Part shown: positions 8,526 through 62,527 of the stretch, one piece after another
How the letters are laid out: each line of letters opens with the position of its first letter
Numbering within the stretch: the stretch's first letter is position 1
NCBI GenBank assembly: GCA_035708065.1
Contig: DASSTC010000016.1
Location: forward strand, 12,773-76,772
DNA length: 64,000 nt
Direction of reading: 5' to 3'
Source of the DNA: Candidatus Limnocylindria bacterium
Lineage (GTDB): Bacteria > Chloroflexota > Limnocylindria > QHBO01
Notes under the pieces: model-generated
Seen by the model: only the letters and a program-made list of their open reading frames with translations
Databases searched by the model: none
What the model was told of the DNA's origin: nothing
Translations under genes and position numbers: made by a program

Positions 8526-8531
8526 GGAAAC

Positions 8532-8553
8532 GGGCCGGCGTCGTCGCCGGCCC
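8532..8553. terminator. GC hairpin between convergent genes (bidirectional terminator candidate)
   Basis: GGGCCGGCG-tcgt-CGCCGGCCC forms a perfect 9-bp stem and lies between stop codons at 8525(+) and 8579(-). There is no clear U-tract. Confidence 0.45.
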
Positions 8554-8578
8554 GCATCGGTCAAGCCCGGCTGACGGC

Positions 8579-47055: not shown

Positions 47056-47091
47056 GGACCGATGATGCCAGACCGGGTTACCGTTGACCGC

Positions 47092-49230
47092 ATGCTCCCG
47101 CGCGCGGCCTGCCTGGCGCTGGCCTGCCTGCTGGTCGCGCCGATGGCGAACGTCCGCGCGGCCGATCCGCCAGCCGCGATCCCGATTCCCGGCGAGCCCG
47201 GCGCGCAGTTCATCGATGGCGCGGCGTTCGGCGGCATCGTCGCGGACCTCGACGGCGACGGTGCTCGCGAGCTGGTGCGGCTCGTGCCGAAGGCCGATTC
47301 GCCCGGCGTGCTGGCGGTCGACGCCTGGCGGGTCAACGCCGACGGCTCGTGGCAGCCTCTCGGCGAGGTGCCGCTCACCCGGGCAGCCAGCGTGAACGAA
47401 ATCGTCAGTGAGCGTCCGGCGCAGCGCAACCCGATGCGCCCGGTCGGCGTCGGCGAACCCGCCCGCTTCCTGATGTGGAACGACGGCACGCGGGAGCGGC
47501 TGCTGGTCGCCACGATCGCCGCCAGCCTCGAGCCGGTCGCCTGCTGCCTCACCGTCTGGCAGGTCGACGAGCGGTCGGCCGGCGCGCCGATCACGTTGAG
47601 GCTGCGGCTCAGCACGCAGGGGAACGCGACCTCCATTCGTTCGCTCGACCTCGACGGCGACCGGCCCGACGAGCTGTTCATCACCCAGGAGCCGGCCCCC
47701 GGCCGCCCGGATCAGGTGCCGGTGCGCGCCTATGACTGGAACGGCAGCGCATTCCGCGAGTCGCGCTCGATCCTCATTGCACCACCCGGCTGGGAGGCGT
47801 TCGCGTCGGGTGACACCGATGGCCGGCCCGGCGGCGAGGTCCTGATCAGCTCCGACCCGATCGGCGGCAGCGGCAGCGCGGTGCTCAACCGCTTCTGGCT
47901 GACCGACGGCGCGCTGAAGACCGAGTCATGGGCGGTCCGCGCCCGCGGCGCCGTTGCGTCGTTCGATGCCGGCGACGGGCCGCGCATCGTCATCGTGCCA
48001 CCCGAGATCGGCCTGACGCTGGTCGTGCGCTGGCCGGCCGGAGGCGCGATCGAGTACGAGTCGGGCGCATCGGACGTCGGACGCCTGCTCGGTGTGCTCG
48101 GGAAGGGACCGAGCACGCGCATCCTGATTGCGGCACACGACGGGGAGAGCGGCTTCCGGATCAGCGGCCCACACCTCGAAGTTGTCCCGGTCCCCAGCGT
48201 TGACGGGGCGGCCGCCGCGCTGGAGCGCAACGGGCTCGACCCGTACGTCGGCGAGCTGCCGGGCGGCCTGTCGGGGGCTGCGGCGTACATCGCCGGCGGG
48301 CAGCTGATCGATCAGCAGCCATCGTCGAGCCTGCTGCGGCCGCTGGCCATGGCCGCCGTCGCGTCACTGCCCGGGATCACGCCGCTCGGCGTGCTGGGCC
48401 GGGGCGAGTCCTGGACGGCGCTGCTCCACGGGGCGGTCGACACGTCGCGGAACGGCGGCGATCTCGCCGCCCCGATGCTCCGCGCCCCGGCGTCGATCAC
48501 CGTCGCACTGACCACGACCGTGCTCTCGCCCGAGTCGCATGCCGGCGAGCTGCGCCCCGGTTTCGGCGGCGCGGTCTCGCTGGACGCCGGCGGTGGTGCG
48601 CTCGCGATCGGCCGCCGGCCGTTCACCGCGGCGCTATCCGGTCCGCCCGGCTCGTTTGCCCTCAGCGCCACCGGCGGTCCCACGGCCGTGGCCGATCCGG
48701 GCACGACCACCACGCCATTCCGCGACGGCGCGGTGCAACTGACCATCACCCCGCCCAGCGGCGAGCACCGCTTCAACCTGGGCATCAGCGTCGTGACGCC
48801 GGCCGGGCACGGCTACGCCGGCACGTGGCGCGTCGAGCTCCTGGACCAGCCGCCGCCGCTCGCCGCCGATACGCCGCTCGCGCCGTTCTCGCTCGATGTG
48901 CCGGTCAACGGCACGACCCGGCCCGGGGCGGCGCTGACGATCGACGGCGGCCCGGTGTCGGTGGCCGCGGACGGCTCGTTCGCCGCCGAGGTGCCGGCCG
49001 GCCTCGTCCCGCGTGACGTCCACCTGGTCGTGACCGATCCGGTCGGCAACGTCACGACCAAGGTGCTCAGCGTCGTCGGCTTCGTCGACTATCGCCGCCT
49101 GCCATGGATCCCGCTCGTCGTGGCGTTGACCGTTGCCGCGGCCGTCGTCCTGTTCTTGCGCGCCCCGCGCCCACGCCCCGAGCCGGCGCGCGCGCCGGAC
49201 GACGACGCGCGGCTCGAGGAGATCGACTGA
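47092..49230 (+). CDS. Exported FG-GAP/VCBS-like repeat protein with Ig-like domain and C-terminal TM anchor
   Basis: 712 aa from ATG 47092. Signal peptide MLPRAACLALACLLVAPMANVRA. Repeats DLDGDGARELV / LDLDGDRPDELF / GDTDGRPGGEVLI. C-terminal helix is LPWIPLVVALTVAAAVVLFL. The 5' 1 kb of ORF 46048 was trimmed. Confidence 0.75.
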   Translation: MLPRAACLALACLLVAPMANVRAADPPAAIPIPGEPGAQFIDGAAFGGIVADLDGDGARELVRLVPKADSPGVLAVDAWRVNADGSWQPLGEVPLTRAASVNEIVSERPAQRNPMRPVGVGEPARFLMWNDGTRERLLVATIAASLEPVACCLTVWQVDERSAGAPITLRLRLSTQGNATSIRSLDLDGDRPDELFITQEPAPGRPDQVPVRAYDWNGSAFRESRSILIAPPGWEAFASGDTDGRPGGEVLISSDPIGGSGSAVLNRFWLTDGALKTESWAVRARGAVASFDAGDGPRIVIVPPEIGLTLVVRWPAGGAIEYESGASDVGRLLGVLGKGPSTRILIAAHDGESGFRISGPHLEVVPVPSVDGAAAALERNGLDPYVGELPGGLSGAAAYIAGGQLIDQQPSSSLLRPLAMAAVASLPGITPLGVLGRGESWTALLHGAVDTSRNGGDLAAPMLRAPASITVALTTTVLSPESHAGELRPGFGGAVSLDAGGGALAIGRRPFTAALSGPPGSFALSATGGPTAVADPGTTTTPFRDGAVQLTITPPSGEHRFNLGISVVTPAGHGYAGTWRVELLDQPPPLAADTPLAPFSLDVPVNGTTRPGAALTIDGGPVSVAADGSFAAEVPAGLVPRDVHLVVTDPVGNVTTKVLSVVGFVDYRRLPWIPLVVALTVAAAVVLFLRAPRPRPEPARAPDDDARLEEID

Positions 49231-49231
49231 G

Positions 49232-52105
49232 TCAGCCGCCTCGGCGGCGGCGCGCGAGACGCTCGGCGAGCGTCTCGCCTGCCGGCGGATTCGGTGGGGT
49301 CGGCGTTTCGGCCGCCCGAGCAGGTGGCGGGGCAGTGGCTGCGGGTGCGGTCGGTGTGGCGGCTATCTCGCCCGATCGCTGGCTCAACCGGCTGCGACGG
49401 TCGCGCGCCACGCGCAGCTCGGCAAGCACCGGCACGGACTCCGGCGCCCGACGGCCGAGGCCAACGCGGCGCGCCACCCAGGCACGCGCCCGCGCCAGGT
49501 CCCCGCGCGACAGCGCCACGCGCCGCACGCCGATGTCGAGTGGCACGAGGAGAATGGCGAGCACCAGCAGCCACGGCCAGATCGGCGTCGGGAAGGCATC
49601 GGCCGCGATGTCGTGGCGCCACACGGCGGCTGCGGCAGCCGGATCCGCCGGGTCGAGAGATCGGCCGTGGCCGGTCGCGGCGAAGCGCGCCAGCGCGTCG
49701 GCGTTCACCCCGAGCCGCCGAAACTCCTGCGCGGCCGGGCTGACGATCCCAAGCGTGCGGCTGGCCGAATCGGTCGTGGTCGTCTGGGCCACGCGAACGA
49801 GGTACGCGCCCGGATCGTCGGCGCGGATGGCGCCGGCGTATCGGCCCGGCCCGACCTGGGTCAGCGTCGACTGCGTCGGCGTGAGGTCGGGCGACACGAG
49901 CCGGAGAACCGTGCGGTAGAAGTTGCGCGGCGCGCCGTCGTCGTCGAGTGAGGTGAGGTTCACGTTGAGCTGCCCGTCGCGTCCCGGGCTGAACTGCACG
50001 TCGATGCCCTGGGCGTCCTGCGGGGGCAGCGTCCAGCCGACCATCTGCGCCAGCGCGGTGCCGTAGACATCGGTGCCGATCCATTCGGTCGCCCATTGCG
50101 CCCGAGCGTCGGAGGTCCAGGCGACCGCGCGGCCGAGGCCGTACTGCCATTGCGCCAGCAGCGGGTCGTCCCGGGCGGTGAGCAGCGCCACGCTGGCGGT
50201 CCCCTTGGCGGTCGTGGCGTTGTAACCGAGCAGCGCGGGCAGGCGGCCGGCATCCAGGCCGCGCAGGATCTCGGAGGGCTGCGCCGGAACCGGCTGGAAT
50301 CGCTCCTCGACGATCTTCTCGCCGGCGGTGCGAATCGTCTCCTTGAGGAAGATGTCGGGGATCTTGGTGGCATCGGCCGCGTCGTAGTAGCGGCCTCCCG
50401 ATTCCTCGGCGAGCGACTTGAGGATGTGGGCCGAGCCACCGCCGGTGCCGATCGTCGACAGCGTGATCCCGGCGGCCTTCATGTCGGCGAGGAGGGCGTC
50501 GTACGTGCCTGACTGTGACCAGCCATCGGTGATGAGGATGATGTGGCGCAGCTTGGCCGGGTTCCGGACCAGGTCGTCGTACGCCGCCTTGAGGCCGGCA
50601 TAGATGTTCGTCGTGCCGTCGGCCGCGAAGCCGAGCCCGGCCTGCAGCGCATTGAGGTCGATCGGTGCGGTGTGCACCGCCCAATGCGCGCCGCCGTCGA
50701 AGGTGACCACACCGAGCTGATCGGAGGGCGCGAGGGCATCGGCCGCACGCAGGATCGCCTCCTTGGCGACGTCCACTTTCTCGAAGCCGCGGCTGCCGCC
50801 GGTCGCGTTGTCGCGGTTGTCGCCGGTGCAGTGGCAATCGGCCATCGAGCCGGACTTGTCGACCACGGCCACCAGCGCCACGTCTGGCGAGCGCTGCTTG
50901 TCGCGCACGGTCATGTACACCGGCATCGTTTCCTCGATCGGCGAGTTGAGGTAGCCGCCGGCGCCGTAGCTCTGCTTGCCCCCGATCATGACCAGGCCTT
51001 TGCCGAGATCGCGGACATAGACCTGCAGCGACGCCATCGCGGCATCGCCGAGCGCGGCGGCCGGGACGTCATCAAGGACCACCGCGTCGTAGCCCGCGAG
51101 CGTCGCCAGCGATGACGGAACGCCGCCGGCGGGGACCACCGTGACCTGCTGTCGCGCGGCCTCGAGCGCGTCGCGCAGCGTCGCGGCGTGGGCCGGATCG
51201 TCGGTTGCCAGCAGAACCTGCGGTTCGCCGCTGACCAGGACGTACGCATCCGCCGCGTTGTTCTGGGTGAAGTGATCGGTCTTCGGCTCGATCACCGCGC
51301 GGAACACGTGGAAGCCGGCCGCATCGGCCTTCACCGAGAAGTCGACCGACTGGCTGCCGGCCTTCAGCGTGAGGTCACGCGTGGCCACCGTCTGGCCATC
51401 GGCCAGCAGGCGCAACGTGGCCGTCGTCGCCACCGTCGACCGCACCCGCGCGGTCAGGTGGATCGTCTCGCCGACACGCGCGCCGGTCGGGGCGTCGAGG
51501 CCGTCGAACAGCGCCTCGCCGTACGTGTCGGTCGCCGGCTGCACGACATCCAGGCGCACGCCGCGGTCCGCGGCGGCCAGGATCGCCTGCTCGGCGCCGC
51601 CGGCCGTGTCGTTGCCGTCGGAGAGCAGCACGAGCCGCTGCTGTGTCCCGGCGGGGAAGATGGCGGTCGCCAGGCGCACCGCCGCACCGATGTCGCTGGC
51701 GCCGACCACCGGGATCGACGCCGGCTCGCTCAGCTCGTCGGACTGTGACGGCAGGCGGTCGACGAGCGCGTTCCCGCCGAAGACGACGACGCCGGCGGTA
51801 TCCGCCTCCGGCATGTCGCGGACCGATGCCCGCGCGAAGTCGAGCAGCGCCTGGCGGCTGCTGTCGACCATGGACGCCGACGCATCGACGAGGAAGACGA
51901 CGCTCAGCCGGTCGGACGGCAGCGCCAGCCGGGCTCCGGCCAGGGCAAAGACGAGCGCGCCGACGAGCACCAGCCGGATGACGAGCGACGCGATGCGCCT
52001 CCCGCGGGGCAGGACCCGCGACGCGACCAGCCAGCCGCCGACGACGAGGGCGACCGAAGGCACGAGCAGCCACAGCCAGGCAGGCGTGGCGAAGGCAACC
52101 GGCAT
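49232..52105 (-). CDS. Large membrane protein: TM - VWA - GATase1/ThuA-like - VWA - TM (BatB/DUF4159-like)
   Basis: 957 aa from ATG 52105 (TGATG junction). Two MIDAS motifs (FLVDASASM, VVDKSGSM). The middle segment is YDAVVLDDVP...LGKGLVMIGG. Confidence 0.85.
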   Translation of the reverse strand: MPVAFATPAWLWLLVPSVALVVGGWLVASRVLPRGRRIASLVIRLVLVGALVFALAGARLALPSDRLSVVFLVDASASMVDSSRQALLDFARASVRDMPEADTAGVVVFGGNALVDRLPSQSDELSEPASIPVVGASDIGAAVRLATAIFPAGTQQRLVLLSDGNDTAGGAEQAILAAADRGVRLDVVQPATDTYGEALFDGLDAPTGARVGETIHLTARVRSTVATTATLRLLADGQTVATRDLTLKAGSQSVDFSVKADAAGFHVFRAVIEPKTDHFTQNNAADAYVLVSGEPQVLLATDDPAHAATLRDALEAARQQVTVVPAGGVPSSLATLAGYDAVVLDDVPAAALGDAAMASLQVYVRDLGKGLVMIGGKQSYGAGGYLNSPIEETMPVYMTVRDKQRSPDVALVAVVDKSGSMADCHCTGDNRDNATGGSRGFEKVDVAKEAILRAADALAPSDQLGVVTFDGGAHWAVHTAPIDLNALQAGLGFAADGTTNIYAGLKAAYDDLVRNPAKLRHIILITDGWSQSGTYDALLADMKAAGITLSTIGTGGGSAHILKSLAEESGGRYYDAADATKIPDIFLKETIRTAGEKIVEERFQPVPAQPSEILRGLDAGRLPALLGYNATTAKGTASVALLTARDDPLLAQWQYGLGRAVAWTSDARAQWATEWIGTDVYGTALAQMVGWTLPPQDAQGIDVQFSPGRDGQLNVNLTSLDDDGAPRNFYRTVLRLVSPDLTPTQSTLTQVGPGRYAGAIRADDPGAYLVRVAQTTTTDSASRTLGIVSPAAQEFRRLGVNADALARFAATGHGRSLDPADPAAAAAVWRHDIAADAFPTPIWPWLLVLAILLVPLDIGVRRVALSRGDLARARAWVARRVGLGRRAPESVPVLAELRVARDRRSRLSQRSGEIAATPTAPAATAPPPARAAETPTPPNPPAGETLAERLARRRRGG

Positions 52106-54033
52106 CAGCTGCTGCTCCGCGGCTGCCTGACCGATGTCCCCGGCCGCGGCCGTCGAAGGACGCGTGCCAGCGCTCGCCGTCCCGGTCGATGGAAGAGCAG
52201 CCACTCAACCAGCAGCAGGGCCAGCGCGATGACCGCCAACCGCCACCACCACTCGACGCGCGCCGGCTGCTCGACCGCGGCACCGGTCGCCGGCCGACCC
52301 ATCTCCTCGATGGGCACCGGATCGCCGGGCGCGACGGCCGACTCACCCGGATCGAACAGGTTCGCCGCCGTGCGACCGAGCGACGTGCCGTCCTCGGTGC
52401 GCAGCTCGCGCAGGCCGACGGTCTCGGCCGCCGGCAGCGTGCCCCGCCCGGCGATCAACGGGATGCGCGTCGTCCCGGCGCCATCAGTCAACGAAACCGC
52501 GGTGATCGACGGGTCGACCGCCAGCGGGATCGCCTCGCCGAGCGGCTGCGAGGGCGGCAGCACGCCGTCGACCGGCGGCAGCAGGAAGTCGACGAGGTTG
52601 CTGGTCAGCAGCGGGAAGGCGACCTGCAGCGGCAGGTCGGAGTCGCCGAGCGCGAACGTGAGCAGCGCGACCGCCGTGCCGTCGACCGTCCCCGCTGCGA
52701 CGAGCGGGTCGCCCGTCGTGGCTGCCACCGCCGGCCGCATCCCATCGGTGAGCACGAGGCGCGCCGCTCGCCCGACGTGCAGCGTCGAGAGGTCGACGTA
52801 GCGCAGCAGCGGGTCGTCCGGATCGGTGCGGTCGAGGAGCGGCGCGTCGACGGTTCCGCTCACGGTGCCGAATGCGCCATCGTCGTGCGGCCCCACGTAC
52901 AGCGCCGGGACGTTCGGCGGCGAGGGCGGCACGAACCGGTCGAAGACGAGCAGACCGTAGGGCGTGCCGTCGGCATCGGCCTTCGCCACGGCGTCGCTGT
53001 ACCCGTCGGTGCTCACCGCGTAGAGCTCGAGGCGCGGCAGCAGTGCCAGGGCGTTCTCGAGGTACGTGTTGCCGTCGCTGACCAACAGCGTGCGGACGGC
53101 GGCCTGCGGCGGGGCGAGCGCGAAGGCACGATCGTCGACCGCGAGCGCGTCACTGCCGGCCAGGCGCGCCTCGATCACGGTCGCCGCCGGCGGCACGGTG
53201 GCGATGATCGCCTCCGCGCGCTGGCCGGCGGCGATCTGCAGGTCGCGGGCGTCGACCAGTGCGTCGTCGGCGTAGATCTCCAGCCGGCGGGTCACGTCGC
53301 CGGCCGACGGATTGGCCACCGCCACGAAGACGTCGAGCTGCGCTCCGCCGGAGCGGCGCGTGGCGGAGAGGGCGGCGACTGCCTGGTTCGCATCGGTCGA
53401 GCCGACCCGTTCGACCTTGACCGGTGCACCGATGCCGACCGGTGGCAGCCGGTCGGCGTTCGCATCGGTCACCACGACGACGGTCGAGTCCGCGTCGCGT
53501 GCAGCCAGCGCCGATGCCAGGGCGAACGCATCGGTCAGGTTGCCCGGAAGCTGGGTCGCGTCGATGCCGTCGATGGCGCGGTCCGCGCTGCTGCGGTCGT
53601 TGGTCTCGCTGGCCAGCACGTGCGCCGAGTCGTCGGCGGCCACCACCGTCACGCGACCGCCCTCGGGAAGCCGTGCGACGACCTGGTGCGCCAACCGGCG
53701 CGCAGCCTCGATCCGCGGCTGGCCGTCGTCGGTGGCGCCCATCGAAGCCGACGTGTCGACGATCAGCACGACGTTGGCCGCGAGATCCGAGGTCGTGTTG
53801 AGGAACGGGCGAGTCGCGGCGAAGACGACGAGCGCGGCAATGAGCAGCTGCAGGAGCAGGAGCCAGCTGAAGCGCAGGCGCTGCCACGGCGCGTTGGCCT
53901 CGACGTCGCGGACGAGCTGCTGCCACAGGAACGTGGAACCGACCGGCACGTCGCGGCGACGCAGCCGGAGCATGTAGAAGGCGACGATCAACGGCAGGAT
54001 CAGCAGGCCGATGAGGGCGAGCGGCGCGATCAC
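52105..54033 (-). CDS. BatA-like protein: aerotolerance-regulator N-terminal TM domain + VWA
   Basis: 642 aa from GTG 54033 (VIAPLALIGLLILPLIVAFYMLRLRRR). MIDAS is LIVDTSASM. The start is uncertain. An 18-codon uORF ends in GTGA at this start. Confidence 0.8.
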   Translation of the reverse strand: MIAPLALIGLLILPLIVAFYMLRLRRRDVPVGSTFLWQQLVRDVEANAPWQRLRFSWLLLLQLLIAALVVFAATRPFLNTTSDLAANVVLIVDTSASMGATDDGQPRIEAARRLAHQVVARLPEGGRVTVVAADDSAHVLASETNDRSSADRAIDGIDATQLPGNLTDAFALASALAARDADSTVVVVTDANADRLPPVGIGAPVKVERVGSTDANQAVAALSATRRSGGAQLDVFVAVANPSAGDVTRRLEIYADDALVDARDLQIAAGQRAEAIIATVPPAATVIEARLAGSDALAVDDRAFALAPPQAAVRTLLVSDGNTYLENALALLPRLELYAVSTDGYSDAVAKADADGTPYGLLVFDRFVPPSPPNVPALYVGPHDDGAFGTVSGTVDAPLLDRTDPDDPLLRYVDLSTLHVGRAARLVLTDGMRPAVAATTGDPLVAAGTVDGTAVALLTFALGDSDLPLQVAFPLLTSNLVDFLLPPVDGVLPPSQPLGEAIPLAVDPSITAVSLTDGAGTTRIPLIAGRGTLPAAETVGLRELRTEDGTSLGRTAANLFDPGESAVAPGDPVPIEEMGRPATGAAVEQPARVEWWWRLAVIALALLLVEWLLFHRPGRRALARVLRRPRPGTSVRQPRSSS

Positions 54034-54130
54034 CTTTCCGGCCCCATGTGACTGGGACGGCGGTGAAGGGACCGCCGGCCGCTCATCCTCGTCGGACGGC
54101 TCGCTCCTTCGACGGGTCGAGTGGTGGCCG

Positions 54131-55024
54131 TCATGCGGTGATGCGGCGGCGTCGGAGGACGTCGAAGAGGAGGTCCGCCAGGTCGAGGTCGCTCGGCACG
54201 GTGACGTACGAGCCGCCGCGGCGGGCGACGAAGGCCGCGATCTCGGCCTGCCATTCGCCCAGCCGGGTGCGGTATCGGTCGACGAGGTCGTCGTCGCCGG
54301 TGACCTCGATGCCCTGGCCGGTCTCGGTGTCGACCAGCCGTGCATCGGGCGGGACGTCGGGATCGAGCTCCTCGGGCGCCAGGACGTGGAGGACGCTGAG
54401 CTGGCAGCGCGTGCGGGCCAGGTCGCGCAACGCGTCCAGGTAGCCGGGATCCATCAGGTCGCTGATGAGCAGCAGCGGCCCGGAACCGCGCAGGCGGCCG
54501 GCGTATTCGCGCGCCGCGGCTGCCAGGCCGGTCAGTCGCTCGGTGCGCGGCTCGGAGAGAAAGCGGAAGACCTCGAACACGCGACCCTTGCCGCGCAGCG
54601 GCCGAAGTGTCGACGCGTGGCCGTCTCCCAGAAAGGCGACGCTCACCCGATCGAGGTGGGCCAGGCCGAGGTAGGCGAGCGCGGCAGCGGCACGACGGGC
54701 GAACTCGAGCTTGTTCGGGTCGCCGAAGTTCATGCTCGCGCTGGCATCGACCAGGACGTGGACGGTGACGTCCTCCTCCTCGACGAAGAGCTTGACGAAC
54801 AGCTTCTCGAGCCGCGCGTAGACGTTCCAGTCGAGCTGGCGCAGGTCGTCGCCGTGCGTGTAGTTGCGGTAGTCGGCGAACTCGACCGACTGCCCGCGCT
54901 TCGTGGAACGCCGCTCGCCCTTCATCCGCCCGGCGGTCAGCCGCCGCGACGCCAGCTCGAGCTGCTCGAGGCGCCGCAGGAACGCCTCGTCAAACAGCGG
55001 CGGGCGGTCCGAGACGATCATCAC
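54131..55024 (-). CDS. DUF58 domain protein (MoxR-associated, VWA-like)
   Basis: 297 aa. GERRSTKRGQSVEFADYRNYTHGDDLRQLDWNVYAR plus VLVDASASM is the classical DUF58 signature. Confidence 0.92.
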   Translation of the reverse strand: MMIVSDRPPLFDEAFLRRLEQLELASRRLTAGRMKGERRSTKRGQSVEFADYRNYTHGDDLRQLDWNVYARLEKLFVKLFVEEEDVTVHVLVDASASMNFGDPNKLEFARRAAAALAYLGLAHLDRVSVAFLGDGHASTLRPLRGKGRVFEVFRFLSEPRTERLTGLAAAAREYAGRLRGSGPLLLISDLMDPGYLDALRDLARTRCQLSVLHVLAPEELDPDVPPDARLVDTETGQGIEVTGDDDLVDRYRTRLGEWQAEIAAFVARRGGSYVTVPSDLDLADLLFDVLRRRRITA

Positions 55025-55059
55025 GCTCGGCGCAAACGGGTCTGCGTCATGCGGAACGG

Positions 55060-56072
<1,013 letters not shown>

Positions 56073-56076
<4 letters not shown>

Positions 56077-57842
56077 GGCTGCTCCGTCGGTTCGAGGCGT
56101 GAGAAGTAGTCGCGCACGAAGTCCTTCAGCGTGACCGGCACCTGTTGCCGGTCGAGCTGGTTGTTGGCGAAATTGCGGAAGAGATCGAAGACGGACCGAT
56201 ACGGCACGACCGACTGGTTATCCAGGCCGATGCCGTTGCCGCCGCCGTTCTGGGTCGGGCCGCCGTTGCCACCCTGCCCGGCGATGTAGCTCGGGTCGCC
56301 GGGATTGCCGAGGCGGTTGATTGGGGCGAAGAGCTTGTCGTCGCCATTCGGTGCGTCGGGCTTGTTGCCCTGCGAGGGCCCGTTGAAGCTCCCGGTCCGC
56401 AGGCCGCCGCCCGGGATGCGGTGCACCTGGGTACCGCCGCCGCCGCCCGGCTGATTGCCGGTGTTGTTGCCCTGGCCAGGCTGGGTGCCTTGGCCGGGCT
56501 GGTTGCCCTGGCCGGGCGCGCCGCTGGCACCGGGCGCCGGCTGGCCGCTTCCGCCGGGCGAGGGCTGGCCGGGCGAACCCGGTGCCGGTTGGCCCGATGC
56601 CCCCGGCTGCGGTTGGCCGGACGAACCCGGCTGCGGCTGACCTGCGCGCGCGACCTGGCGCGCGCCGTCCGATAACGCGGACTGCGCAGCCGCCACGTCA
56701 CGCTGCAGCTGGCGTCGCTGCTCGGCGTTGCGCGTCGCATCCGCGGCACGGTTGAGCGCATCGCGTGCCGCCTGCTGGTCATGCTGATCGCCGGACTGCG
56801 CCGCGCGGTCCAGGGCATCGGCTGCTTCGCTGAGCTGTCGAGCCAGGTCGGGCTGTCCTGACGCCGCCTGCGATGCCTGCCGCAGCGCATCGGTCGTCGA
56901 TCTCGCCTCGGAGGGTGACTGGCTGCCGAGCTTGTTGGCGAGGTCCTCGAGGTCCTTGGCCGCCGCATCGGTCGTGCCCTCGGCATTGTTCTGGTCGTCA
57001 CCGGTCACCGCGCGGGAGATGGAGCGCGACAGCTGCGTGAGCTCGGCGTCCCTGGCTGCCGCCTGCGGGTCGGCCAGCTTCGCCAACTGCTCCTGCACCG
57101 AACCGATGCGGGCCAGTGTTGCCTGCCGGTCATCGCCCTGTTCGCGGAGCTGCCTGGCCAAACGACGCAGCTGCTCCACGAGCTTGTCGCGCTCGGGATC
57201 CTTCGTGTCGGCGCCCTTGCGCTCGGCGTCGTCCGCGACCTTCTCCACGCGCTCGGCGACCTGCCGGCTCGCCTCGCGCGCCGCGCGACGATCGGCCAGC
57301 ACGCCGTCCTGCGGATTCGGCCAGACGACGAGGACGAGCAGCAGCACCAGCGCGATGCCGGCGACCGATGCGGGCCGGCGCTCGAGCCGCGGTCGGAAGG
57401 CGCCCCGCAGGTCGACCTCGGCCAGACGCGCGCGAGCATCCGCCAGCTGGCGCGGCACGAGATCGAGCTCGAGCTCGCGCTCTGTCGCGCCGCCGGATCC
57501 GATCAGCTCGAGCGCTGTGCCGAGGCGCTCGCGGAGCGCCAGCTCGTCATCGGCACGGTGGGCGGTCGCGACCAGCGACGGTCGCTGCAGCCAGCTCCAG
57601 GCGGCCCACGCCAGGATGACGGCGGCCACGACGGCGAGCATGAGCTGCGGCGCCCATTCGACCGCGATGCTGCGGGCCAGCAGCTGCACGCCGGCGAGCG
57701 CGATGAGCGCGGCCGCGGTCGCCCACCCACCACCGCGCAATGATCGCCGCAGCCAGAGCCGTCGCCGCAGGGCGGCCAGGCGTGTTGCGCTGTCGCGCCC
57801 GAGCCGATCGGTCACACGCCTGCCGTCCTGGCGGTCGGTCAT
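56073..57842 (-). CDS. Bitopic membrane protein with long coiled-coil and Q/G/P/N-rich low-complexity region (DUF4175-like?)
   Basis: 589 aa. TM helices are near residues 40-90 and 155-175. The middle is Ala/Arg/Asp/Gln-rich and helical. Carries a GQPxPG repeat. The C-terminus is VPVTLKDFVRDYFSRLEP. ATGA overlaps at both ends. Confidence 0.8.
56431..56645 (-). repeat. Coding low-complexity tandem repeat (SGQPxPGx octapeptide-like, then GQGNQPGQGTQPGQGN)
   Basis: The minus-strand translation reads GQPQPGSSGQPQPGASGQPAPGSPGQPSPGGSGQPAPGASGAPGQGNQPGQGTQPGQGNNTGNQPGGGGG. Confidence 0.85.
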
Positions 57843-59032
57843 GCTTCCGCTTCCTCGATGCGTGGATCGCCGTCGCCGGCGACTTGTGTCGCGCTGGCGA
57901 CACGCGCGCCACGCTGACGGCGGAAGACGAAGCGCATCCCCGCGGGGAGGACCAGGCGCATCGAGATGAGGGTCAGCAGCACCGCGAGCAGCGCGAACGT
58001 CGCGGCGAAGCGCGGCCAGAAGTGGTCGTAACGGGTGTTGAAGCCGAACGCCGTGGCTCGGTCAGGGATGCGCGAGCCGGGGACCTGGCAGATCGCGCCG
58101 GCCGGACACGGATCGGAGCCCGGGACGGCGCACGGACCGTCGCCGCACAGGTCGGTTGCCGTCGTAGGCACCAGCGGGCTGCCCGTGCCGAACTGGCTGA
58201 CGAACGAGCTGAACGTACCCGGCACCGACTCGGTGTTGGCGACGACGTCTGCCATGGCGACCGCCGGGTTGACCCACATCAGCTGCTCGGGGGCGGTGCG
58301 CCGTTCACTGAACGGGCTCGAGGTGTCTCGATTGGCGAGCGCCGTCCAGAAGACGAAGACGAGCAGGGTGCCGATGGTGAAGGCAAGCATCGTCGAATAC
58401 GTCAGGACGGTCGAGGCCTGCGTGCGCTTCACGAAGGCTGAGAAAAAGAGCCCGATCGTGCCGAAGCCGAGCGCTGCGCTGAGCAGGACGACGAGCTGGC
58501 GCAGCAGATCACCGATCGTCACGCCGCCGTACATGAACACCAGTGCGCTCAACGGGATGCCGGCCAGGATCATGAGCAGGAGGAAGGCAAGTGCCGCGAG
58601 GAGCTTGCCGACCACGATGGCGCCCGGTCGCATCGGTGTGCTGATCAGCAGGTCGAGCGTCTGCTTCTCGCGCTCGAGCGAGATGGCGCCGGCGGTGAAT
58701 GCCGGGGCGATGAAGCAGACCAGCAGCAGCTGGAACATCGACAGCGTGGCGAAGATCGCCTGACCGATGCTGGCCGATGCGTTGGCCGCATTGAGACCGC
58801 CGAAGCCCCCGAATGCACCGCCGGCCACCTGCGAGCGCGCCTGCGGCCCCATCACCGTGTATACGCCGTAGGCGATCAGGGCCAGGATCGCCAGGTAGAT
58901 GGTGAGCACCACGAACGCGCGCCGGCCGCGGAATCGCGAGCGCAGCTCCTTGACCATGATCGTGGCGACCGCCGAGGCGAACTCATGGAAGCGGCCGCGC
59001 TCGAGCGGCGCGGCAACGGCAGCGGCGCTCAC
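57839..59032 (-). CDS. ABC-2 type transporter permease with Cys-rich extracytoplasmic loop
   Basis: 397 aa and multi-TM. The loop DLCGDGPCAVPGSDPCPAGAICQ has 4 Cys. GTG overlaps the ATPase stop (GTGA). Confidence 0.85.
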   Translation of the reverse strand: MSAAAVAAPLERGRFHEFASAVATIMVKELRSRFRGRRAFVVLTIYLAILALIAYGVYTVMGPQARSQVAGGAFGGFGGLNAANASASIGQAIFATLSMFQLLLVCFIAPAFTAGAISLEREKQTLDLLISTPMRPGAIVVGKLLAALAFLLLMILAGIPLSALVFMYGGVTIGDLLRQLVVLLSAALGFGTIGLFFSAFVKRTQASTVLTYSTMLAFTIGTLLVFVFWTALANRDTSSPFSERRTAPEQLMWVNPAVAMADVVANTESVPGTFSSFVSQFGTGSPLVPTTATDLCGDGPCAVPGSDPCPAGAICQVPGSRIPDRATAFGFNTRYDHFWPRFAATFALLAVLLTLISMRLVLPAGMRFVFRRQRGARVASATQVAGDGDPRIEEAEA

Positions 59033-59994
59033 GCGGCCTCCTCGGCGCCGGCGTCCTGTCCGGTGACCTTCAGGAAGATCTCCTCGAGGCCGCTGGTCGC
59101 CTGCGCGAAGCTGCTCAGCCGGTGGCCGGCGGCGACGATGTCGCGCAGCAGCGCCGCCTGATCATCGGGCGTGCCGTCGAACGGCAGCTCGAGGCGCGTG
59201 ACTCCCGCGGCGGAGCCGTCGACCAGGATCTCGCCGATACGGCGGTCGGCCTCCAGCTTGGCGATCAGCGGCGCCGAGTCGGAGAGCACCTCGATCCTGA
59301 GGACGGCGCCCGCGCGCAGGGAGCGCTCGATCTCGTCGATGCTGCCCGAGCGCAGCAGCCGGCCGCGATCGATAATCCCGACGCCGGTGCACATCTCGCC
59401 GAGCTCCGGCAGGATGTGGCTGCTGACGAGGATCGTCTTGCCCATCGAGCGCAGCTCGCGCAGGATCTCGCGCATCTCCACCCGTGCTCGAGGGTCCAGG
59501 CCGGAGGCCGGCTCGTCGAGGATCAGCAGCGCCGGGTCGTGAACCAGCGTGTGGGCCAGGCACAGCCGCTGACGCATGCCGCGCGACAGGCTCTCGACGT
59601 AGGCGTCGCGCTTCTCGCCGAGGGCCACGATCTCGAGCAGCTCGCCGATCATCGCCGTGCGCCGGGGGGCGGGGACGCCGTAGCAGCGGGCGAAGAAGTC
59701 CAGGTACTCCCAGACGCGCAGATCGTCGTAGACGCCGTAGAAGTCCGGCATGTAGCCGATGCGCCGCCGAACGCCGATCGGGTCGACATCGACCGGGATG
59801 CCGCACACCAGCGCCTCGCCGGCCGTCGGCGCGAGCAGCGTGGCCAGGATCTTCATCGTGGTCGTCTTGCCCGCGCCGTTCGGCCCGACCAGGCCGTAGA
59901 TCTCGCCCGGTCCGACGACCATGTCCACGCCGGCGACCGCCATCTGGTCGTCGTAGCGCTTGGTGAGCCCACGGGTCTCGATCACCGGGGTCAT
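59029..59994 (-). CDS. ABC transporter ATP-binding protein (ABC-2 type)
   Basis: 321 aa from ATG 59994 (ATGA overlap). Walker A GPNGAGKTT, LSRGMRQR, LILDEP. Confidence 0.93.
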   Translation of the reverse strand: MTPVIETRGLTKRYDDQMAVAGVDMVVGPGEIYGLVGPNGAGKTTTMKILATLLAPTAGEALVCGIPVDVDPIGVRRRIGYMPDFYGVYDDLRVWEYLDFFARCYGVPAPRRTAMIGELLEIVALGEKRDAYVESLSRGMRQRLCLAHTLVHDPALLILDEPASGLDPRARVEMREILRELRSMGKTILVSSHILPELGEMCTGVGIIDRGRLLRSGSIDEIERSLRAGAVLRIEVLSDSAPLIAKLEADRRIGEILVDGSAAGVTRLELPFDGTPDDQAALLRDIVAAGHRLSSFAQATSGLEEIFLKVTGQDAGAEEAA

Positions 59995-62411
59995 CGGACG
60001 AGCACTCCGGAGAGGCTGGCCGTGGCGAACACCGGCGTCTCGCCCTGATCGGCCGGCACCGAGTCGCCGACGATCCGCACCAGGATGCTGTCGCCCGGAC
60101 CGATGAACTCGCTCGGGTCGGGCAGCTCGAAGCGGCTCAGCGCATTCGGGTTGCCGAGCTCCACCCACGCGTCGTTCGCGACGTTGTAGGCGGACACGTG
60201 GTAGCCCGGCGGCAGCGGGTTGCTGGCGTTGAACTGGTTGAACATCACCGAACCCGGGTCGCCGGCGGTCAGGATCGCGGCGGACGAAGGATGCAGGCCG
60301 ACCGCCTGGAGCGGCAGGGAGATGCGGAACTCGACCATCCCGTTGCCGAGCAGCGTGCCGAAGTCCTGGTTGATCACGTCGCCATCGGTCGCCACCACGC
60401 TGACATGCAGCTCGGAGGGGGTGAGCTCGATCTTGCCTGGACCGAGCGTCGGCGTGCCGGCGACGACCTCGACGCCTTGGCTGAAACGCTGCACCTTCTG
60501 CCCGTCGATCTCGACGCTGACCGGCGACGCGTCGTCATGCCAGCCGATGACGTATGGCCCGGCGGCGTCCGCGGCACCGGGCTGCTCACCGAGCTTGCCG
60601 AAGCCGGCGCCGGCGCCGACCAGCGTGTCGATCACCTGCCGCCGTGTCTGGATCTGCAGCTGGCGATCGGTCCCGGTGAACTCGCCGCTTTGGAAGCCGT
60701 ACACCCGATCGGACGCCTGTGAGCCGTCGAACGGGCTGATCGACAGGTTGAACTCGTGCGACGCGCCCGGCGCCAGATCCCCGATCTTCGTGCCACCACC
60801 GGCGGCGATCACCGCGACGTCGGTCAACGGCTCCTCGGAGACGTTCGTCACGCGGCCGGTGATCTGCCGGCCTTCGTGGTGCCAGGTCACGTCGAGCGAC
60901 GGCCGGTAGGCGATCGTCGTCTCGGCGCGGATGCCCTGCAGGCCGAAGACGCTCACCGACAGGCCACGCAGGTGCGACGGATCGCCCTGCTCGGTGGGGT
61001 GCTCGACCGGCTGACCGTTGCCGTCGAAGAAATCTGCCAGGGACGAGATCAGTGCGTCGCCGCGCACCGTGAGGTCGTACGTCGAACGGCTGGGCGAGAA
61101 GACGCCGGCATAGGTCGAGACCGATGCCGCCGACGCTCCGCTCGTGGTCCGCACCACGGACACCTCGTTGACGATGATGTCGCTGCCCTTCAGCGACGAG
61201 CCGATGCCGTACGACCCGGCCGAGAACGCGACGACCAGCGCCGGAGCGGTGACCCACGCCAGCTCGCGACGGTCCCATCGACGCAGGACGAAGTAGCTGG
61301 CCGGGCCGATGAGGACGATATATGCGCCGATGACGAGGAGCAGCAGCTCGGCCGGCGGGACCTGCAGCGACGGCAGGTTGGCGAGCGCCTGCGACATCAG
61401 CGCGTCGATCTGCTGCTGCTGCATCATCCCGCCGCCGGTTAGTTGCTGCTGCAGCCGGTCGTCGGGCAGCAGGCGCGACCAGAACGGCGCGGCGCCGGGC
61501 CAGTCGCGGAACGGACGAGTGGCCAGATCGACGCCGATGAACGTGACGCGTCCGGCGCCGCTCGATCGCGTGGTGAGCAACGGGTGGTGCTCGGGTGCCA
61601 GCGCGAACGCGTCGGAGCGCACCGTGCCGGCCGCCGCGGTTCCCAGCGTGGCGTCCGCCGGCAAGTCACTGCCGCTCCACGTCGCGAGCGCGTCGAACGG
61701 CACGTTGTCCGCCGAGCTCAGGTCGGTGACCGGCAGCAGGTCGCCGAATGCGGCGGTGCGCGCCTGCCAGTCCGGGCCACCGATCACGATCAGGTCGCCG
61801 CCGGCGGCGATCCAGCGTTCGAGCGCCCGCCGCTGCGCCTCGGTCAGCGTGCTGCTGTCGCCGGCCCACACGATCGTCTCGAGGCCTGCCAGCGGCTCAG
61901 GCCGTTCGGGGAGATCGGCTACCGCAAGCCCAACCGGCTCCGGCAGCCCGTCGCCCCGTGTCGTGACCTGCGCGCGCAGGTTGCCCTGTGCATCGCCGAC
62001 GAGCGCGACGTTCGCGCCGGAACGTTCGAGGACCTTGACCTCGGCGCTGCCGGTGGCGAGCGATGTGCCGGCATCGGTCTGGAAGTGCACTTCGACCTGG
62101 CGGGTGAAGGCGCCCGGGCGCAGGAACAGGGTCACCTGCTTGCGAGCGCCGGCCGGCAGCTCAACGGCGCGGCGCACCGGGCCGTCCTGGCCACTCGCCT
62201 CGAGGCGGCCGTTGACCGGCGCGCCGTCGTTGGTCAGCGAGACGGTCAGTCCCAGCCAGCCGCCGTCCTCGAAGCGGCCCGCGACGAGAGGCCGAACCTG
62301 GAGCTGGATCGGGTCCGCCGCAAGCGCGACACCGGCGATGGCGGGCAGCAGGAAGAGGGCGCAGGCAACGGCTGCGACGCATCGCGGCAGGGCTCGGGAC
62401 CGGACCGTCAT
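59991..62411 (-). CDS. Large exported/membrane protein with GATase1-ThuA-like (DUF4350/GldG-like) segment and two central TM helices
   Basis: 806 aa from ATG 62411 (GAGGGGAG upstream). Signal peptide ALPRCVAAVACALFLLPAIAGVALA. IVWAGDSSTLTEAQRRALERWIAAGGDLIVIGGPDW. TM pair lies around residues 375-420. Confidence 0.8.
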   Translation of the reverse strand: MTVRSRALPRCVAAVACALFLLPAIAGVALAADPIQLQVRPLVAGRFEDGGWLGLTVSLTNDGAPVNGRLEASGQDGPVRRAVELPAGARKQVTLFLRPGAFTRQVEVHFQTDAGTSLATGSAEVKVLERSGANVALVGDAQGNLRAQVTTRGDGLPEPVGLAVADLPERPEPLAGLETIVWAGDSSTLTEAQRRALERWIAAGGDLIVIGGPDWQARTAAFGDLLPVTDLSSADNVPFDALATWSGSDLPADATLGTAAAGTVRSDAFALAPEHHPLLTTRSSGAGRVTFIGVDLATRPFRDWPGAAPFWSRLLPDDRLQQQLTGGGMMQQQQIDALMSQALANLPSLQVPPAELLLLVIGAYIVLIGPASYFVLRRWDRRELAWVTAPALVVAFSAGSYGIGSSLKGSDIIVNEVSVVRTTSGASAASVSTYAGVFSPSRSTYDLTVRGDALISSLADFFDGNGQPVEHPTEQGDPSHLRGLSVSVFGLQGIRAETTIAYRPSLDVTWHHEGRQITGRVTNVSEEPLTDVAVIAAGGGTKIGDLAPGASHEFNLSISPFDGSQASDRVYGFQSGEFTGTDRQLQIQTRRQVIDTLVGAGAGFGKLGEQPGAADAAGPYVIGWHDDASPVSVEIDGQKVQRFSQGVEVVAGTPTLGPGKIELTPSELHVSVVATDGDVINQDFGTLLGNGMVEFRISLPLQAVGLHPSSAAILTAGDPGSVMFNQFNASNPLPPGYHVSAYNVANDAWVELGNPNALSRFELPDPSEFIGPGDSILVRIVGDSVPADQGETPVFATASLSGVLVR

Positions 62412-62457
62412 CTCCCCTCGTCGAGCGGATGGTGCCACGCTTGACGCGTGACGCAGC

Positions 62458-62467
62458 CAACCGGTTG
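62458..62467. promoter_or_regulatory. 10-bp perfect palindrome CAACCGGTTG in the divergent gap between the 13-kb operon and the GAF kinase
   Basis: Read directly. It is flanked by a TGACGC-G-TGACGC direct repeat (62442-62454). Confidence 0.25.
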
Positions 62468-62527
62468 CAGTAGCGTGAGTGTAGGGGCGGCGTCCAGTCG
62501 TTGTTGACCAGCAAGGCGGAGGGGCGG

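Follow-up and report, generated by a model that had tools for sequence, protein, structure and literature searches.

A conserved eight-gene operon joining an ABC-2 transporter set to a MoxR-DUF58-VWA set in Limnocylindria and other bacteria

Bat-type loci, in which MoxR, DUF58, BatA and BatB genes are grouped, are found in Bacteroidota and spirochaetes, like BB0170-BB0176 of Borrelia and the bat genes of Leptospira. The RL3499-RL3502 operon of Rhizobium leguminosarum is presumably a comparable locus. Few bacterial gene clusters that still lack a mechanism are as widespread as these MoxR-DUF58-VWA (“Bat”) clusters. MoxR-DUF58-BatA-VWA cores are common without any ABC genes, as in the Bat operons (PMC3557215; PMC5700661). 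The abstract of the Leptospira study states that no specific Bat function had been demonstrated experimentally (PMC3557215). For the BatA-type protein BB0173, experimental topology shows an outward VWA domain (PMC5700661).

MoxR/VWA pairs work via a VWA finger in the AAA+ pore, together with carboxylates on the target surface (PMC9976466, PMC13036017). In archaea, the neighbourhood of arCOG01314 (DUF4350), MoxR and vWA genes was predicted to encode a secretion or membrane-remodelling complex (Makarova, Galperin & Koonin 2015, PMC5898192). It contains S-layer-like Ig-domain proteins, and an ABC-2 transporter is not listed (PMC5898192). The link between DUF4350, MoxR and vWA proteins is already known from this work and is hence not new.

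The locus and its limits

The DNA analysed is a window of 64,000 nucleotides from a Candidatus Limnocylindria bacterium (Chloroflexota). The class Limnocylindria has no cultured members and is represented here by metagenome-assembled genomes. Eight co-directional ORFs (g1 to g8) lie at 49232-62411, all of them already read from the sequence in a first-pass annotation:

g1, 59991..62411, minus strand: signature protein, 806 aa, membrane-anchored
g2, 59029..59994, minus strand: ABC ATPase, 321 aa, DrrA/GldA/NodI-like ABC-2 class
g3, 57839..59032, minus strand: ABC-2 permease, 397 aa
g4, 56073..57842, minus strand: protein of 589 aa, no family assignment
g5, 55060..56076, minus strand: MoxR-type AAA+ ATPase, 338 aa (AAA_3 + AAA_lid_2)
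g6, 54131..55024, minus strand: DUF58 protein, 297 aa
g7, 52105..54033, minus strand: BatA-type protein, 642 aa
g8, 49232..52105, minus strand: TM + VWA + GATase1_like protein, 957 aa

Five of the seven junctions overlap, exactly as that annotation had claimed:

g1/g2, ATGA at 59991-59994, minus strand: start/stop overlap
g2/g3, GTGA at 59029-59032, minus strand: start/stop overlap
g3/g4, ATGA at 57839-57842, minus strand: start/stop overlap
g4/g5, ATGA at 56073-56076, minus strand: start/stop overlap
g7/g8, TGATG at 52103-52107, minus strand: start/stop overlap

At the two others, g5 and g6 are separated by 35 bp and g6 and g7 by 97 bp, the latter figure presupposing that g7 starts at GTG 54033, which is backed by orthologue alignments. 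Internal promoters could lie in both gaps. The operon is limited by a divergent plus-strand gene from 62528, encoding a GAF-HisKA sensor kinase next to g1, and by a convergent plus-strand gene for an FG-GAP-like protein, ending at 49230. One further feature belongs to the upstream limit:

62412..62527, no strand: divergent intergenic region of 116 bp between g1 and the GAF-HisKA sensor kinase gene

This region presumably houses the operon promoter, placed there by position only; it gave no sigma-70 consensus site when searched and no Rfam match. Within it, GAGGGGAG is found directly upstream of the g1 ATG.

The eight genes form a tightly packed operon, and the proposed joining of an ABC-2 set to a MoxR/DUF58/VWA set is borne out by gene content and order. 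They are genuine genes and not the chance ORFs that are frequent in 70% GC DNA, since same-order orthologues exist in other phyla.

Predicted proteins of the two modules

The domains proposed for the eight proteins were recovered by Pfam, at sub-threshold level for g1 and without a family for g4. The protein g1 starts with a signal peptide, followed by a beta-sandwich, a GATase1-like (DUF4350/DUF7408-like) domain, a TM hairpin and three beta-sandwich domains. Its Pfam matches (DUF4350, DUF7408 and ThuA) are sub-threshold, DUF4350 reaching 24.9 bits for a cut-off of 30.4, and 13 of 19 g1 family members match DUF4350 at E<=0.1. The family comprises 5,072 representative clusters (50% identity, E<=1e-30). 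The AF2 model of g1 has a pLDDT of 78, and a fold search with it returned generic beta-sandwich matches only (TM-score about 0.15). A GldG-type auxiliary protein (ABC_transp_aux, PF09822) was considered for g1 and rejected (12.6 versus 34.7 bits, E=0.081; E<=0.1 in only 2 of the 19 members). The large proteins of the cluster, at first described as giant exported proteins, are membrane-anchored ectodomain proteins instead. The anchor of g1 is its central TM hairpin, which carries a conserved cytoplasmic loop, LRRxDRRELAW, in the cross-lineage alignment.

The ATPase g2 (ABC_tran, 92 bits) has a Walker A (GPNGAGKT), a signature (LSRG) and a Walker B motif (LLILDE), and with the adjacent permease g3 (4-bp overlap) it has the make-up of a generic ABC-2 transporter. 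It misses every NCBIfam equivalog cut-off, and its nearest relatives are drug and polymer exporter ATPases, e.g., DrrA and NodI. The label “GldA/F-like” was therefore dropped, as the GldA model (TIGR03522) gives g2 212.1 bits for a cut-off of 402.6 and the GldF model (TIGR03518) reaches 39.6 for 288.5. Six TM helices are predicted for the permease (ABC2_membrane_2, 73 bits versus 27.2), and its outer loop measures 110 aa. The four cysteines noticed in this loop are present here, but their spacing differs among orthologues and the large loop is missing in the shorter permeases of other lineages; the Cys loop is lineage-specific.

No match to g4 was found in Pfam, NCBIfam or the PDB. Its layout consists of a basic cytoplasmic N-terminus, three TM helices with a 71-aa cytoplasmic insert, an outer coiled coil and a stalk. 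The stalk is a variable (SGQPG)n repeat, encoded by a G/Q/P tandem array at about 56468-56639, and the C-terminal ~45 amino acids are highly conserved (VPY..LDRQQVPxTLKDFVRDYFSRLEP). Alignments show that both ends of g4 are conserved across phyla, and together with the cytoplasmic loop of g1 they rank among the most conserved parts.

In the second module, g5 (AAA_3, 212 bits) carries Walker A GVPGLGKT and Walker B LVLADE and is predicted to be cytoplasmic. Its identity is 83-90% within the class and 54-59% to other phyla. The DUF58 protein g6 (112 bits, with a weak VWA_2 match) has an intact MIDAS, VLVDASASM, whose DxSxS motif is retained in other lineages. It is predicted to be cytoplasmic as well, because it has no TM helix, and is likely the VWA adaptor of g5.

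Both g7 and g8 start with a double-TM hairpin and end with a C-terminal TM helix. In g7 (BatA, PF07584, 49.3 bits for a cut-off of 25.9; VWA_2, 61.5 bits), an outer VWA domain (MIDAS LIVDTSASM) and a further outer region lie in between, and a basic tail follows. Residues 209-483 of g7 show weak ectodomain similarity to residues 40-320 of g1 (hhalign probability 40%). In g8 (VWA_2, VWA, GATase1_like and VWA_CoxE in Pfam), the hairpin is followed by a VWA domain (FLVDASASM), a GATase1_like domain interrupted by a second VWA (VVDKSGSM), beta-rich domains and, after the last TM helix, a basic cytoplasmic tail of 101 aa. Its PDB relatives are isolated BatB VWA and GATase1-like domains only. All four DxSxS motifs of the first reading are thus in place, and the MIDAS motifs are largely retained across lineages. 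Judged by the positive-inside rule, the VWA and GATase1-like domains face outward while MoxR and DUF58 stay inside the cell, and the predicted topology of g7 agrees with the experimental one of BB0173 (PMC5700661). The GATase1-like domains are without any cysteine, which indicates that they are structural and not amidotransferases.

Conserved gene order and proposed working

The co-occurrence of the two parts in the same order extends far beyond the source genome. The first-pass annotation had named a lack of such co-occurrence as grounds for refutation, and this check came out in its favour. The order g1-g8 is identical in every long-enough locus among 83 related Limnocylindria loci. The cluster occurs in 234 species genomes of one class, and three examined loci share their DUF1015/hydrolase neighbours; it is a core, syntenic locus of Limnocylindria and not a variable island. 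Outside the class, the identical order is found in uncultured rumen Clostridia (L087-L089), in Ktedonobacteria (L090/L091, including the cultured Tengunoibacter tsumagoiensis), in two further lineages (L092/L093) and in Desulfoscipio gibsoniae of the Desulfotomaculia (L094). The hosts span two phyla, Chloroflexota and Bacillota, and protein identity to these outside loci ranges from 24% (g1) to 59% (g5). Dictyobacter is a further cultured carrier; with T. tsumagoiensis and D. gibsoniae also in culture, the question is open to experiment. The g4/g5 boundary, -4 bp here, measures 5-45 bp in four measured loci; for L091-L093 and L094, the coordinates of the genes give 6-8 bp and about 90 bp, respectively.

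Each module is also found without the other, so that they are not strictly in need of each other. Brevibacillus laterosporus has a three-gene, ABC-only version (g1-like, ABC and ABC-2), which lacks g4 as well as any MoxR genes within 10 kb, and locus L086 has g1-like and ABC genes only. These ABC-only loci and the Bat operons without ABC genes show the cluster to be a stable union of two modules. They also bear on a different explanation, by which the operon would hold two separate systems, an ABC-2 exporter and a Bat-like stress module, co-transcribed for envelope homeostasis. The exporter cargo would then be a lipid, a glycolipid, a wall polymer or a toxic compound, with g1 and g4 as accessory proteins. 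The Brevibacillus module adjoins an ECF sigma/anti-sigma pair of the sort common in envelope-stress regulons; this fits such a separation, as do the Bat-type modules lacking ABC genes (PMC3557215, PMC5700661) and the DrrA/NodI-type relatives of g2. However, none of the lineages has polymer-synthesis or glycosyltransferase genes alongside the cluster. Moreover, gene order and tight spacing, including the g4/g5 boundary, have been preserved in two phyla although the proteins share only 24-59% identity, which would be hard to maintain without a functional link. Two separate systems are therefore considered rather unlikely.

An anti-phage or conflict role, like that of the MoxR-vWA systems of multicellular prokaryotes, is very improbable. 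Ternary systems of this kind exist (PMC7159879), g5 has a weak Pfam bpMoxR match (32 bits) and the Ktedonobacteria among the carriers are mycelial. On the other hand, PADLOC gave no defence-system match; g2 and g5 had P-loop matches of a generic kind only, and the other six proteins had none. None of the genes encodes an effector domain such as a nuclease, protease or TIR, and a core syntenic locus is not what a variable conflict island would look like.

The reading that we tentatively favour, at somewhat less than an even chance, is that the eight genes are one conserved operon for a single envelope-spanning complex of two ATP-driven modules. It builds on gene content, motifs, predicted topology and cross-phylum gene order, from which we infer complex formation, binding partners and cellular role. 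It counts against this reading that none of the lineages has a recognisable gene for a cargo or substrate, and that either module can stand alone. Assembly or remodelling of membrane-anchored ectodomain proteins would be powered by two ATPases in the cytoplasm, ABC and MoxR/DUF58. Module A (g1-g4) would be an ABC-2 transporter made of ATPase g2 and permease g3, with g1 and g4 as dedicated membrane partners. The large ectodomains of g1, beta-sandwiches and a non-catalytic GATase1/GIFT-like domain, would flank the TM hairpin on both sides, and the 3-TM protein g4 would extend its coiled coil, variable Gly-Gln-Pro stalk and conserved C-terminal knob outward. The ABC-2 unit may export a substrate or pass ATP-driven movement to its ectodomain partner g1.

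The Bat-like module B (g5-g8) would consist of a cytoplasmic MoxR ring (g5) and its cytoplasmic VWA/MIDAS adaptor (g6), while g7 and g8 would display GATase1-like domains on the outer side, along with three VWA domains that carry a MIDAS. If it works like NorQ/NorD, MoxR-DUF58 might grip acidic surface residues on the loops or tails that the membrane subunits expose to the cytoplasm, and then remodel or assemble these subunits; candidate grip sites are the DRRELAW loop of g1, the cytoplasmic insert of g4 and the tail of g8. The outer MIDAS sites may bind acidic ligands, a candidate being the invariant acidic C-terminus of g4; these ligands are guesses from conservation. The net effect would be that a protein scaffold is built or held together in the wall or surface zone of mostly monoderm bacteria. 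The earlier suggestion of an envelope assembly or adhesion machine is a reasonable inference. It is possible, if doubtful, that ABC-2 and MoxR-VWA act as one unit in an unrecognised, widespread, monoderm-type envelope machine that secretes or assembles a cell-surface protein scaffold.

Comparison with described systems

The first-pass annotation had assigned the cluster to no characterised system, and this still holds: none of this composition was found in family libraries, the PDB or the searchable literature, the PDB holding isolated domains only and nothing of the whole cluster.

Bat loci share the core order of a MoxR AAA+ ATPase, DUF58 and two double-TM, BatA-type, MIDAS-bearing VWA membrane proteins. 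Here, g5 is followed by g6 after a 35-bp gap, and g7 has the N-terminal double-TM hairpin and MIDAS VWA (DTSAS) of the BatA type. The cluster could thus be seen as a local orthologue of the Bacteroides/spirochaete Bat aerotolerance operon, which would protect against oxidative stress, with a transporter alongside. The BatA domain of g7, above the Pfam cut-off (49 versus 25.9 bits), and PDB relatives among BatB and “aerotolerance-related” VWA domains speak for this. In contrast to Bat loci, the second VWA protein is much bigger, with 957 aa, two VWA domains and GATase1_like, four extra conserved genes (g1-g4, the ABC-2 transporter set) are integral to the cluster upstream, and the hosts are Chloroflexota and Bacillota instead of diderm Bacteroidota, spirochaetes or Proteobacteria. 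None of the eight proteins matches a BatC-like TPR, BatD, BatE or other Bat-specific family in Pfam or NCBIfam; the Leptospira BatA model (NF047508, VWA_BatA_Lepto) matches g8 only, at 24.7 bits for a cut-off of 380, and not g7. Nor is a role of Bat proteins in aerotolerance established in the first place, given what the abstract of the Leptospira study says about their function (PMC3557215). Such orthology is accordingly judged quite improbable. Across phyla, an ABC-2 transporter, a GldG/DUF4350-like ectodomain protein and a stalk-like protein accompany the Bat-like core as a fixed set, which points to a role in export or surface assembly rather than a purely cytoplasmic stress role.

Like g5 and g6, the pairs NorQ-NorD, CbbQ-CbbO and RavA-ViaA combine a MoxR-class AAA+ ATPase carrying Walker motifs with a soluble MIDAS VWA protein, and a specific target complex is likely remodelled here too. 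The targets of those pairs are known enzymes (NO reductase, Rubisco, respiratory complexes), whereas the sole plausible targets here are the co-encoded membrane proteins, and the adaptor is DUF58 and not NorD, CbbO or ViaA. GldA/GldF/GldG of Flavobacterium similarly unite an ABC-2 ATPase and permease with a large membrane-anchored, GATase1/GIFT-like ectodomain partner, but no gliding or T9SS genes are present here and the hosts are non-Bacteroidota.

In the archaeal system, a membrane-anchored extracellular flavodoxin/GldG-like DUF4350 protein is encoded beside a COG0714 MoxR ATPase and a DUF58-type vWA protein. MoxR and DUF58/vWA genes are present in this cluster as well, with g1 as a possible equivalent of the DUF4350 protein, and in both cases the components are mostly membrane or extracellular proteins. 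The DUF4350 match of g1, however, is below threshold, and g1 has a central TM hairpin and a second ectodomain where the archaeal protein has a single C-terminal anchor. The S-layer-like Ig-domain proteins (arCOG02884, pfam07760) have no match among the eight proteins in Pfam. If the one-unit machine proved true, it would be the bacterial counterpart of this archaeal DUF4350-MoxR-vWA system, itself predicted only, and the first concrete functional context for the Bat/MoxR-VWA family.

Gene set, junctions and domain content

The GC content is ~70% throughout the window, and both strands carry long ORFs that are spurious. The eight minus-strand ORFs in 49232-62411 are real genes, forming an ABC-2 transporter set (g1-g4) followed by a Bat-like MoxR/DUF58/VWA set (g5-g8). 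The domain list drawn up in the first-pass annotation was confirmed by Pfam and NCBIfam scans, as follows, together with the two flanking genes:

59991-62411, minus: g1, 806 aa; sub-threshold DUF4350 (24.9 bits against a cut-off of 30.4), DUF7408 and ThuA (Pfam)
59029-59994, minus: g2, 321 aa; ABC_tran, closest models DrrA, GldA and NodI, all under equivalog cut-offs (NCBIfam)
57839-59032, minus: g3, 397 aa; ABC2_membrane_2, 73 bits (Pfam)
56073-57842, minus: g4, 589 aa; no family match in Pfam or NCBIfam
55060-56076, minus: g5, 338 aa; MoxR, with AAA_3 (212 bits) and AAA_lid_2 (Pfam)
54131-55024, minus: g6, 297 aa; DUF58, 112 bits (Pfam)
52105-54033, minus: g7, 642 aa; BatA N-terminal domain and VWA_2
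49232-52105, minus: g8, 957 aa; VWA_2 and GATase1_like, the latter interrupted by a second VWA
62528-64000, running past the window end, plus: membrane-bound GAF and HisKA sensor histidine kinase, divergent from g1 across a 116-bp gap
~47050-49230, plus: FG-GAP-like protein with a signal peptide, a weak FG-GAP-like repeat match and a C-terminal TM anchor, convergent with g8

The five overlapping junctions on which translational coupling had been proposed (ATGA, GTGA, ATGA, ATGA and TGATG) were all found exactly where claimed. The two non-overlapping junctions have gaps of 35 bp and 97 bp, the latter figure holding for a g7 start at GTG 54033, which is preceded by GGAAAG and where the orthologue alignments also start. 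Simple promoter, terminator and Rfam scans gave no significant match. The adjacency of the kinase and g1 is not conserved, since a DUF1015 gene and a hydrolase are the upstream neighbours instead in three other Limnocylindria loci (L001-L003). At the other end, the stop of the FG-GAP-like gene is 1 nt away from that of g8; FG-GAP beside VWA is reminiscent of integrin architecture. The 64-kb window holds two other ABC ATPase genes, at 28623-29348 (plus, 40% identical to g2) and 42476-43141 (minus, 29%), and no second MoxR, DUF58 or VWA copy.

The four DxSxS MIDAS motifs are all intact, as are the Walker motifs of g2 and g5 and the ABC signature. Reading of g1, g7 and g8 revealed no cysteine in the GATase1-like regions: g7 has none at all, the two of g1 (residues 10 and 17) lie in its N-terminal signal peptide, and the two of g8 lie in its second VWA domain. 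From their sequence, the GATase1-like domains can thus be excluded as class-I amidotransferases, and a structural role is presumed. The sole cysteines of g8 belong to a Cys-His-Cys motif, ADCHCTGD (residues ~421-426, window 50860-50880 region), directly after the MIDAS motif, which might be an extra metal site. The 4-Cys loop of g3 is not retained as a diagnostic trait.

Conservation within and outside Limnocylindria

Homologues of g1 are found in Chloroflexota, chiefly labelled Candidatus Limnocylindria, at ~50% identity. When one genome per GTDB species was scanned, 234 genomes proved to encode a g1 relative; virtually all of the 80 loci retained are Limnocylindria-like, with 45-55% identity to g1. 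The eight-gene order is conserved: tblastn with the eight window proteins against 83 loci placed g1-g8 collinear and on the same strand in every locus long enough.

Some of these loci (L004, L012, L013, L018, L025, L039, L040 and L058) come from MAGs labelled Dormiibacterota, Zixiibacteriota, Methylomirabilota, Steroidobacteraceae, Binatia or Angelobacter. Their g1 is 46-54% identical and their gene order unchanged. As they resemble the window as closely as bona fide Limnocylindria do, they were not taken as cross-phylum spread, and the labels are probably binning or label errors.

Because the scan was saturated with Limnocylindria-like loci, an outward search was undertaken: g1 was compared by tblastn with plasmid records, giving two distant relatives; one of these seeded a protein search, and a distant match from that second step seeded a further search. 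The complete eight-gene order was recovered in further lineages, so the ABC-2 and MoxR/VWA parts do co-occur outside Limnocylindria.

Loci recovered outside the class
L087, L088, L089: full eight genes; uncultured rumen/gut Clostridia
L090: full eight genes; Ktedonobacteria-like metagenome contig
L091: full eight genes; Tengunoibacter tsumagoiensis, cultured Ktedonobacteria
L092, L093: full eight genes; two additional lineages
L094: full eight genes; Desulfoscipio gibsoniae, cultured Desulfotomaculia
L095: first four genes only; short contig

Identity to the window (gene: in the 83 loci; outside the class)
g1: 45-54%; 24-25%
g2: ~77%; 45-51%
g3: ~54%; 33-42%
g4: ~55%; family detectable across phyla via N-terminal and C-terminal motifs
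g5: ~85%; 54-59%
g6: 80-88%; 34-36%
g7: 65-70%; 30-33%
g8: ~75%; 29-34%

Outside the class the genes likewise overlap or lie close together, and this holds for the g4/g5 boundary where the two halves meet. A multi-lineage g1 profile matched 15,760 representative clusters (50% identity) at E<=1e-3; at E<=1e-30 the number is 5,072. Nearly all of the best 150 match over the full length. The g1 family is therefore large, and the loci sampled are a small part of it.

In the three rumen Clostridia loci, two extra genes (~422 aa and ~231 aa, at ~7920-9900) always immediately precede the g1 homologue and share its strand; they have no Pfam family except a weak DUF6320 match and may be lineage-specific additional components. 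In T. tsumagoiensis, flotillin (Band_7/Flot) and PspA/IM30 genes (L091 974-3508) lie 6-9 kb upstream of the cluster, with a PatA_N response regulator nearer to it. A PatA_N regulator and rpiA also adjoin the cluster in L090.

Each half also occurs apart. Brevibacillus laterosporus (L084) has a g1-like gene with an ABC ATPase (45% to g2) and an ABC-2 permease (32% to g3); g4 is missing, as is any MoxR/DUF58/VWA gene within 10 kb. Directly before these genes (L084 9772-11437), an ECF sigma factor is followed by a beta-propeller protein in the anti-sigma position, which hints at envelope-stress control of this stand-alone module. L086 has a g1-like gene and an ABC ATPase only. Conversely, the classical Bat loci are MoxR-DUF58-BatA-VWA cores without ABC genes (PMC5700661; PMC3557215). 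The existence of both kinds of locus makes the cluster a joining of two modules (g1-g4 with g5-g8), in line with the first-pass annotation.

L085 (NZ_CP061968.1), where a g4-like gene is present, was not counted as a clean ABC-only case because it contains duplicated inverted segments and its relative D. gibsoniae carries all eight genes. This 27-kb record, labelled "Klebsiella pneumoniae plasmid unnamed3", encodes a spore-germination permease and a protein 98% identical to one of Desulfofundulus kuznetsovii. It looks like mislabelled or misassembled Firmicute (Desulfofundulus) DNA rather than a Klebsiella plasmid.

The stand-alone variants speak for two independent systems that are merely co-transcribed, while the conserved gene order and spacing across phyla speak against them; this reading is held to be rather unlikely. 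Among the sampled loci of the g1 family, the joined state is the usual one. The eight genes very probably constitute one functional unit.

Predicted topology and putative mechanism

Hydropathy and the positive-inside rule predict the same layout for g7 and g8: an outer N-terminus, a TM hairpin whose cytoplasmic loop is basic, a very large part outside the membrane, then one TM helix near the C-terminus and a basic tail in the cytoplasm (28 aa in g7, 101 aa in g8). The layout matches the topology mapped experimentally for BB0173, a BatA-type protein of Borrelia with three TM helices and a periplasm-facing VWA domain (PMC5700661). No TM segment occurs in g5 or g6, and both are predicted cytoplasmic proteins.

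The AlphaFold2 model of g1 (pLDDT 78, pTM 0.79) begins with a signal peptide and a beta-sandwich, continues through an alpha/beta GATase1-like domain into a helical TM hairpin at 354-407, and closes with three more beta-sandwich domains. In this model both large parts are therefore outside the membrane. The short cytoplasmic loop of the hairpin, LRRxDRRELAW, is invariant in the class and recognisable in every lineage. A fold search of the model against the PDB was uninformative, with only generic beta-sandwich matches (mu-homology, transglutaminase and A2M domains) at a TM-score of ~0.15. Profile-profile comparison aligned g7 209-483 with g1 40-320 (beta-sandwich and GATase1-like domain); as the probability is only 40%, this is a mere hint of ectodomain likeness.

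The g4 protein starts with a basic N-terminus in the cytoplasm, followed by three TM helices around a 71-aa cytoplasmic insert (residues 86-156), an outer coiled coil, an (SGQPG)n tract and ~45 nearly invariant C-terminal residues ending in RLEPTE. The (SGQPG)n-type tract (window 56468-56639; orthologue alignment A2) changes strongly in length among species while both protein ends are nearly invariant, behaviour that fits a length-variable spacer. A likeness of g4 to DUF4175/TIGR02302 proteins (N-terminal TM helices, Gln/Gly-rich tail) was considered and the assignment dropped, as neither Pfam scans of 17 orthologues (E<=1) nor a PDB profile search gave a match.

Cytoplasmic elements in both g1 and g4 are strongly conserved. 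Our tentative model, to which we give slightly less than even weight, is a single envelope-spanning complex with two cytoplasmic motors. MoxR-DUF58 would act from the cytoplasmic side on membrane-subunit loops or tails. The ABC-2 unit would either export some substrate or mechanically drive its partner g1, much as the ABC-2-type NosFY complex mechanically drives its periplasmic partner NosD. Acidic ligands, for instance the invariant C-terminus of g4, could occupy the outer MIDAS sites. All parts might jointly build or uphold a scaffold at the surface in which the variable Gly-Gln-Pro tract of g4 serves as spacer; we give this surface-assembly role somewhat less than even odds.

Comparison with known systems

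The cluster shares MoxR, DUF58 and BatA-type features with the Bat operon, but a TPR (BatC-like) protein is absent, as is any further Bat-type protein, and with the curated Leptospira BatA model only g8 gives a hit, at 24.7 bits against a cut-off of 380. A plain Bat aerotolerance orthologue is thus improbable. A defence system is more remote still, PADLOC giving no match for the cluster. GldAFG membership was rejected by all three tests applied, and GldG has only the broad GATase1/GIFT-like superfamily in common with g1. PDB relatives are isolated structural-genomics domains only, of BatB VWA (3ibs, 4jdu) and GATase1-like (2gk3, 3rht) type. The statement that the cluster is not assignable to any characterised system was upheld, and no description of a MoxR/DUF58/VWA cluster with an ABC-2 transporter was found in open-access and bioRxiv full texts.

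For g5-g6, the best mechanistic template by analogy would be NorQ-NorD and its relatives, in which a VWA finger lies inside the AAA+ pore and carboxylates on the target surface are required (PMC9976466, PMC13036017). The nearest published idea to the whole cluster is the archaeal arCOG01314 neighbourhood, where DUF4350, MoxR and vWA proteins are predicted to form a secretion or membrane-remodelling complex (Makarova, Galperin, Koonin; PMC5898192). No ABC-2 transporter is listed for that neighbourhood, its accessory proteins differ from those of the cluster, and the complex is itself a prediction.

The cluster would supply a concrete export/assembly context for the unexplained Bat/MoxR-VWA family, and this context is testable, as the carriers include cultured organisms (T. 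tsumagoiensis, Dictyobacter arantiisoli and D. gibsoniae). Each component comes from a family that is already known, and a DUF4350-MoxR-vWA link had been predicted before, so the cluster is not categorically new; it is a conserved cross-phylum variant in which a Bat-like MoxR/VWA core is coupled to an ABC-2 transporter set.
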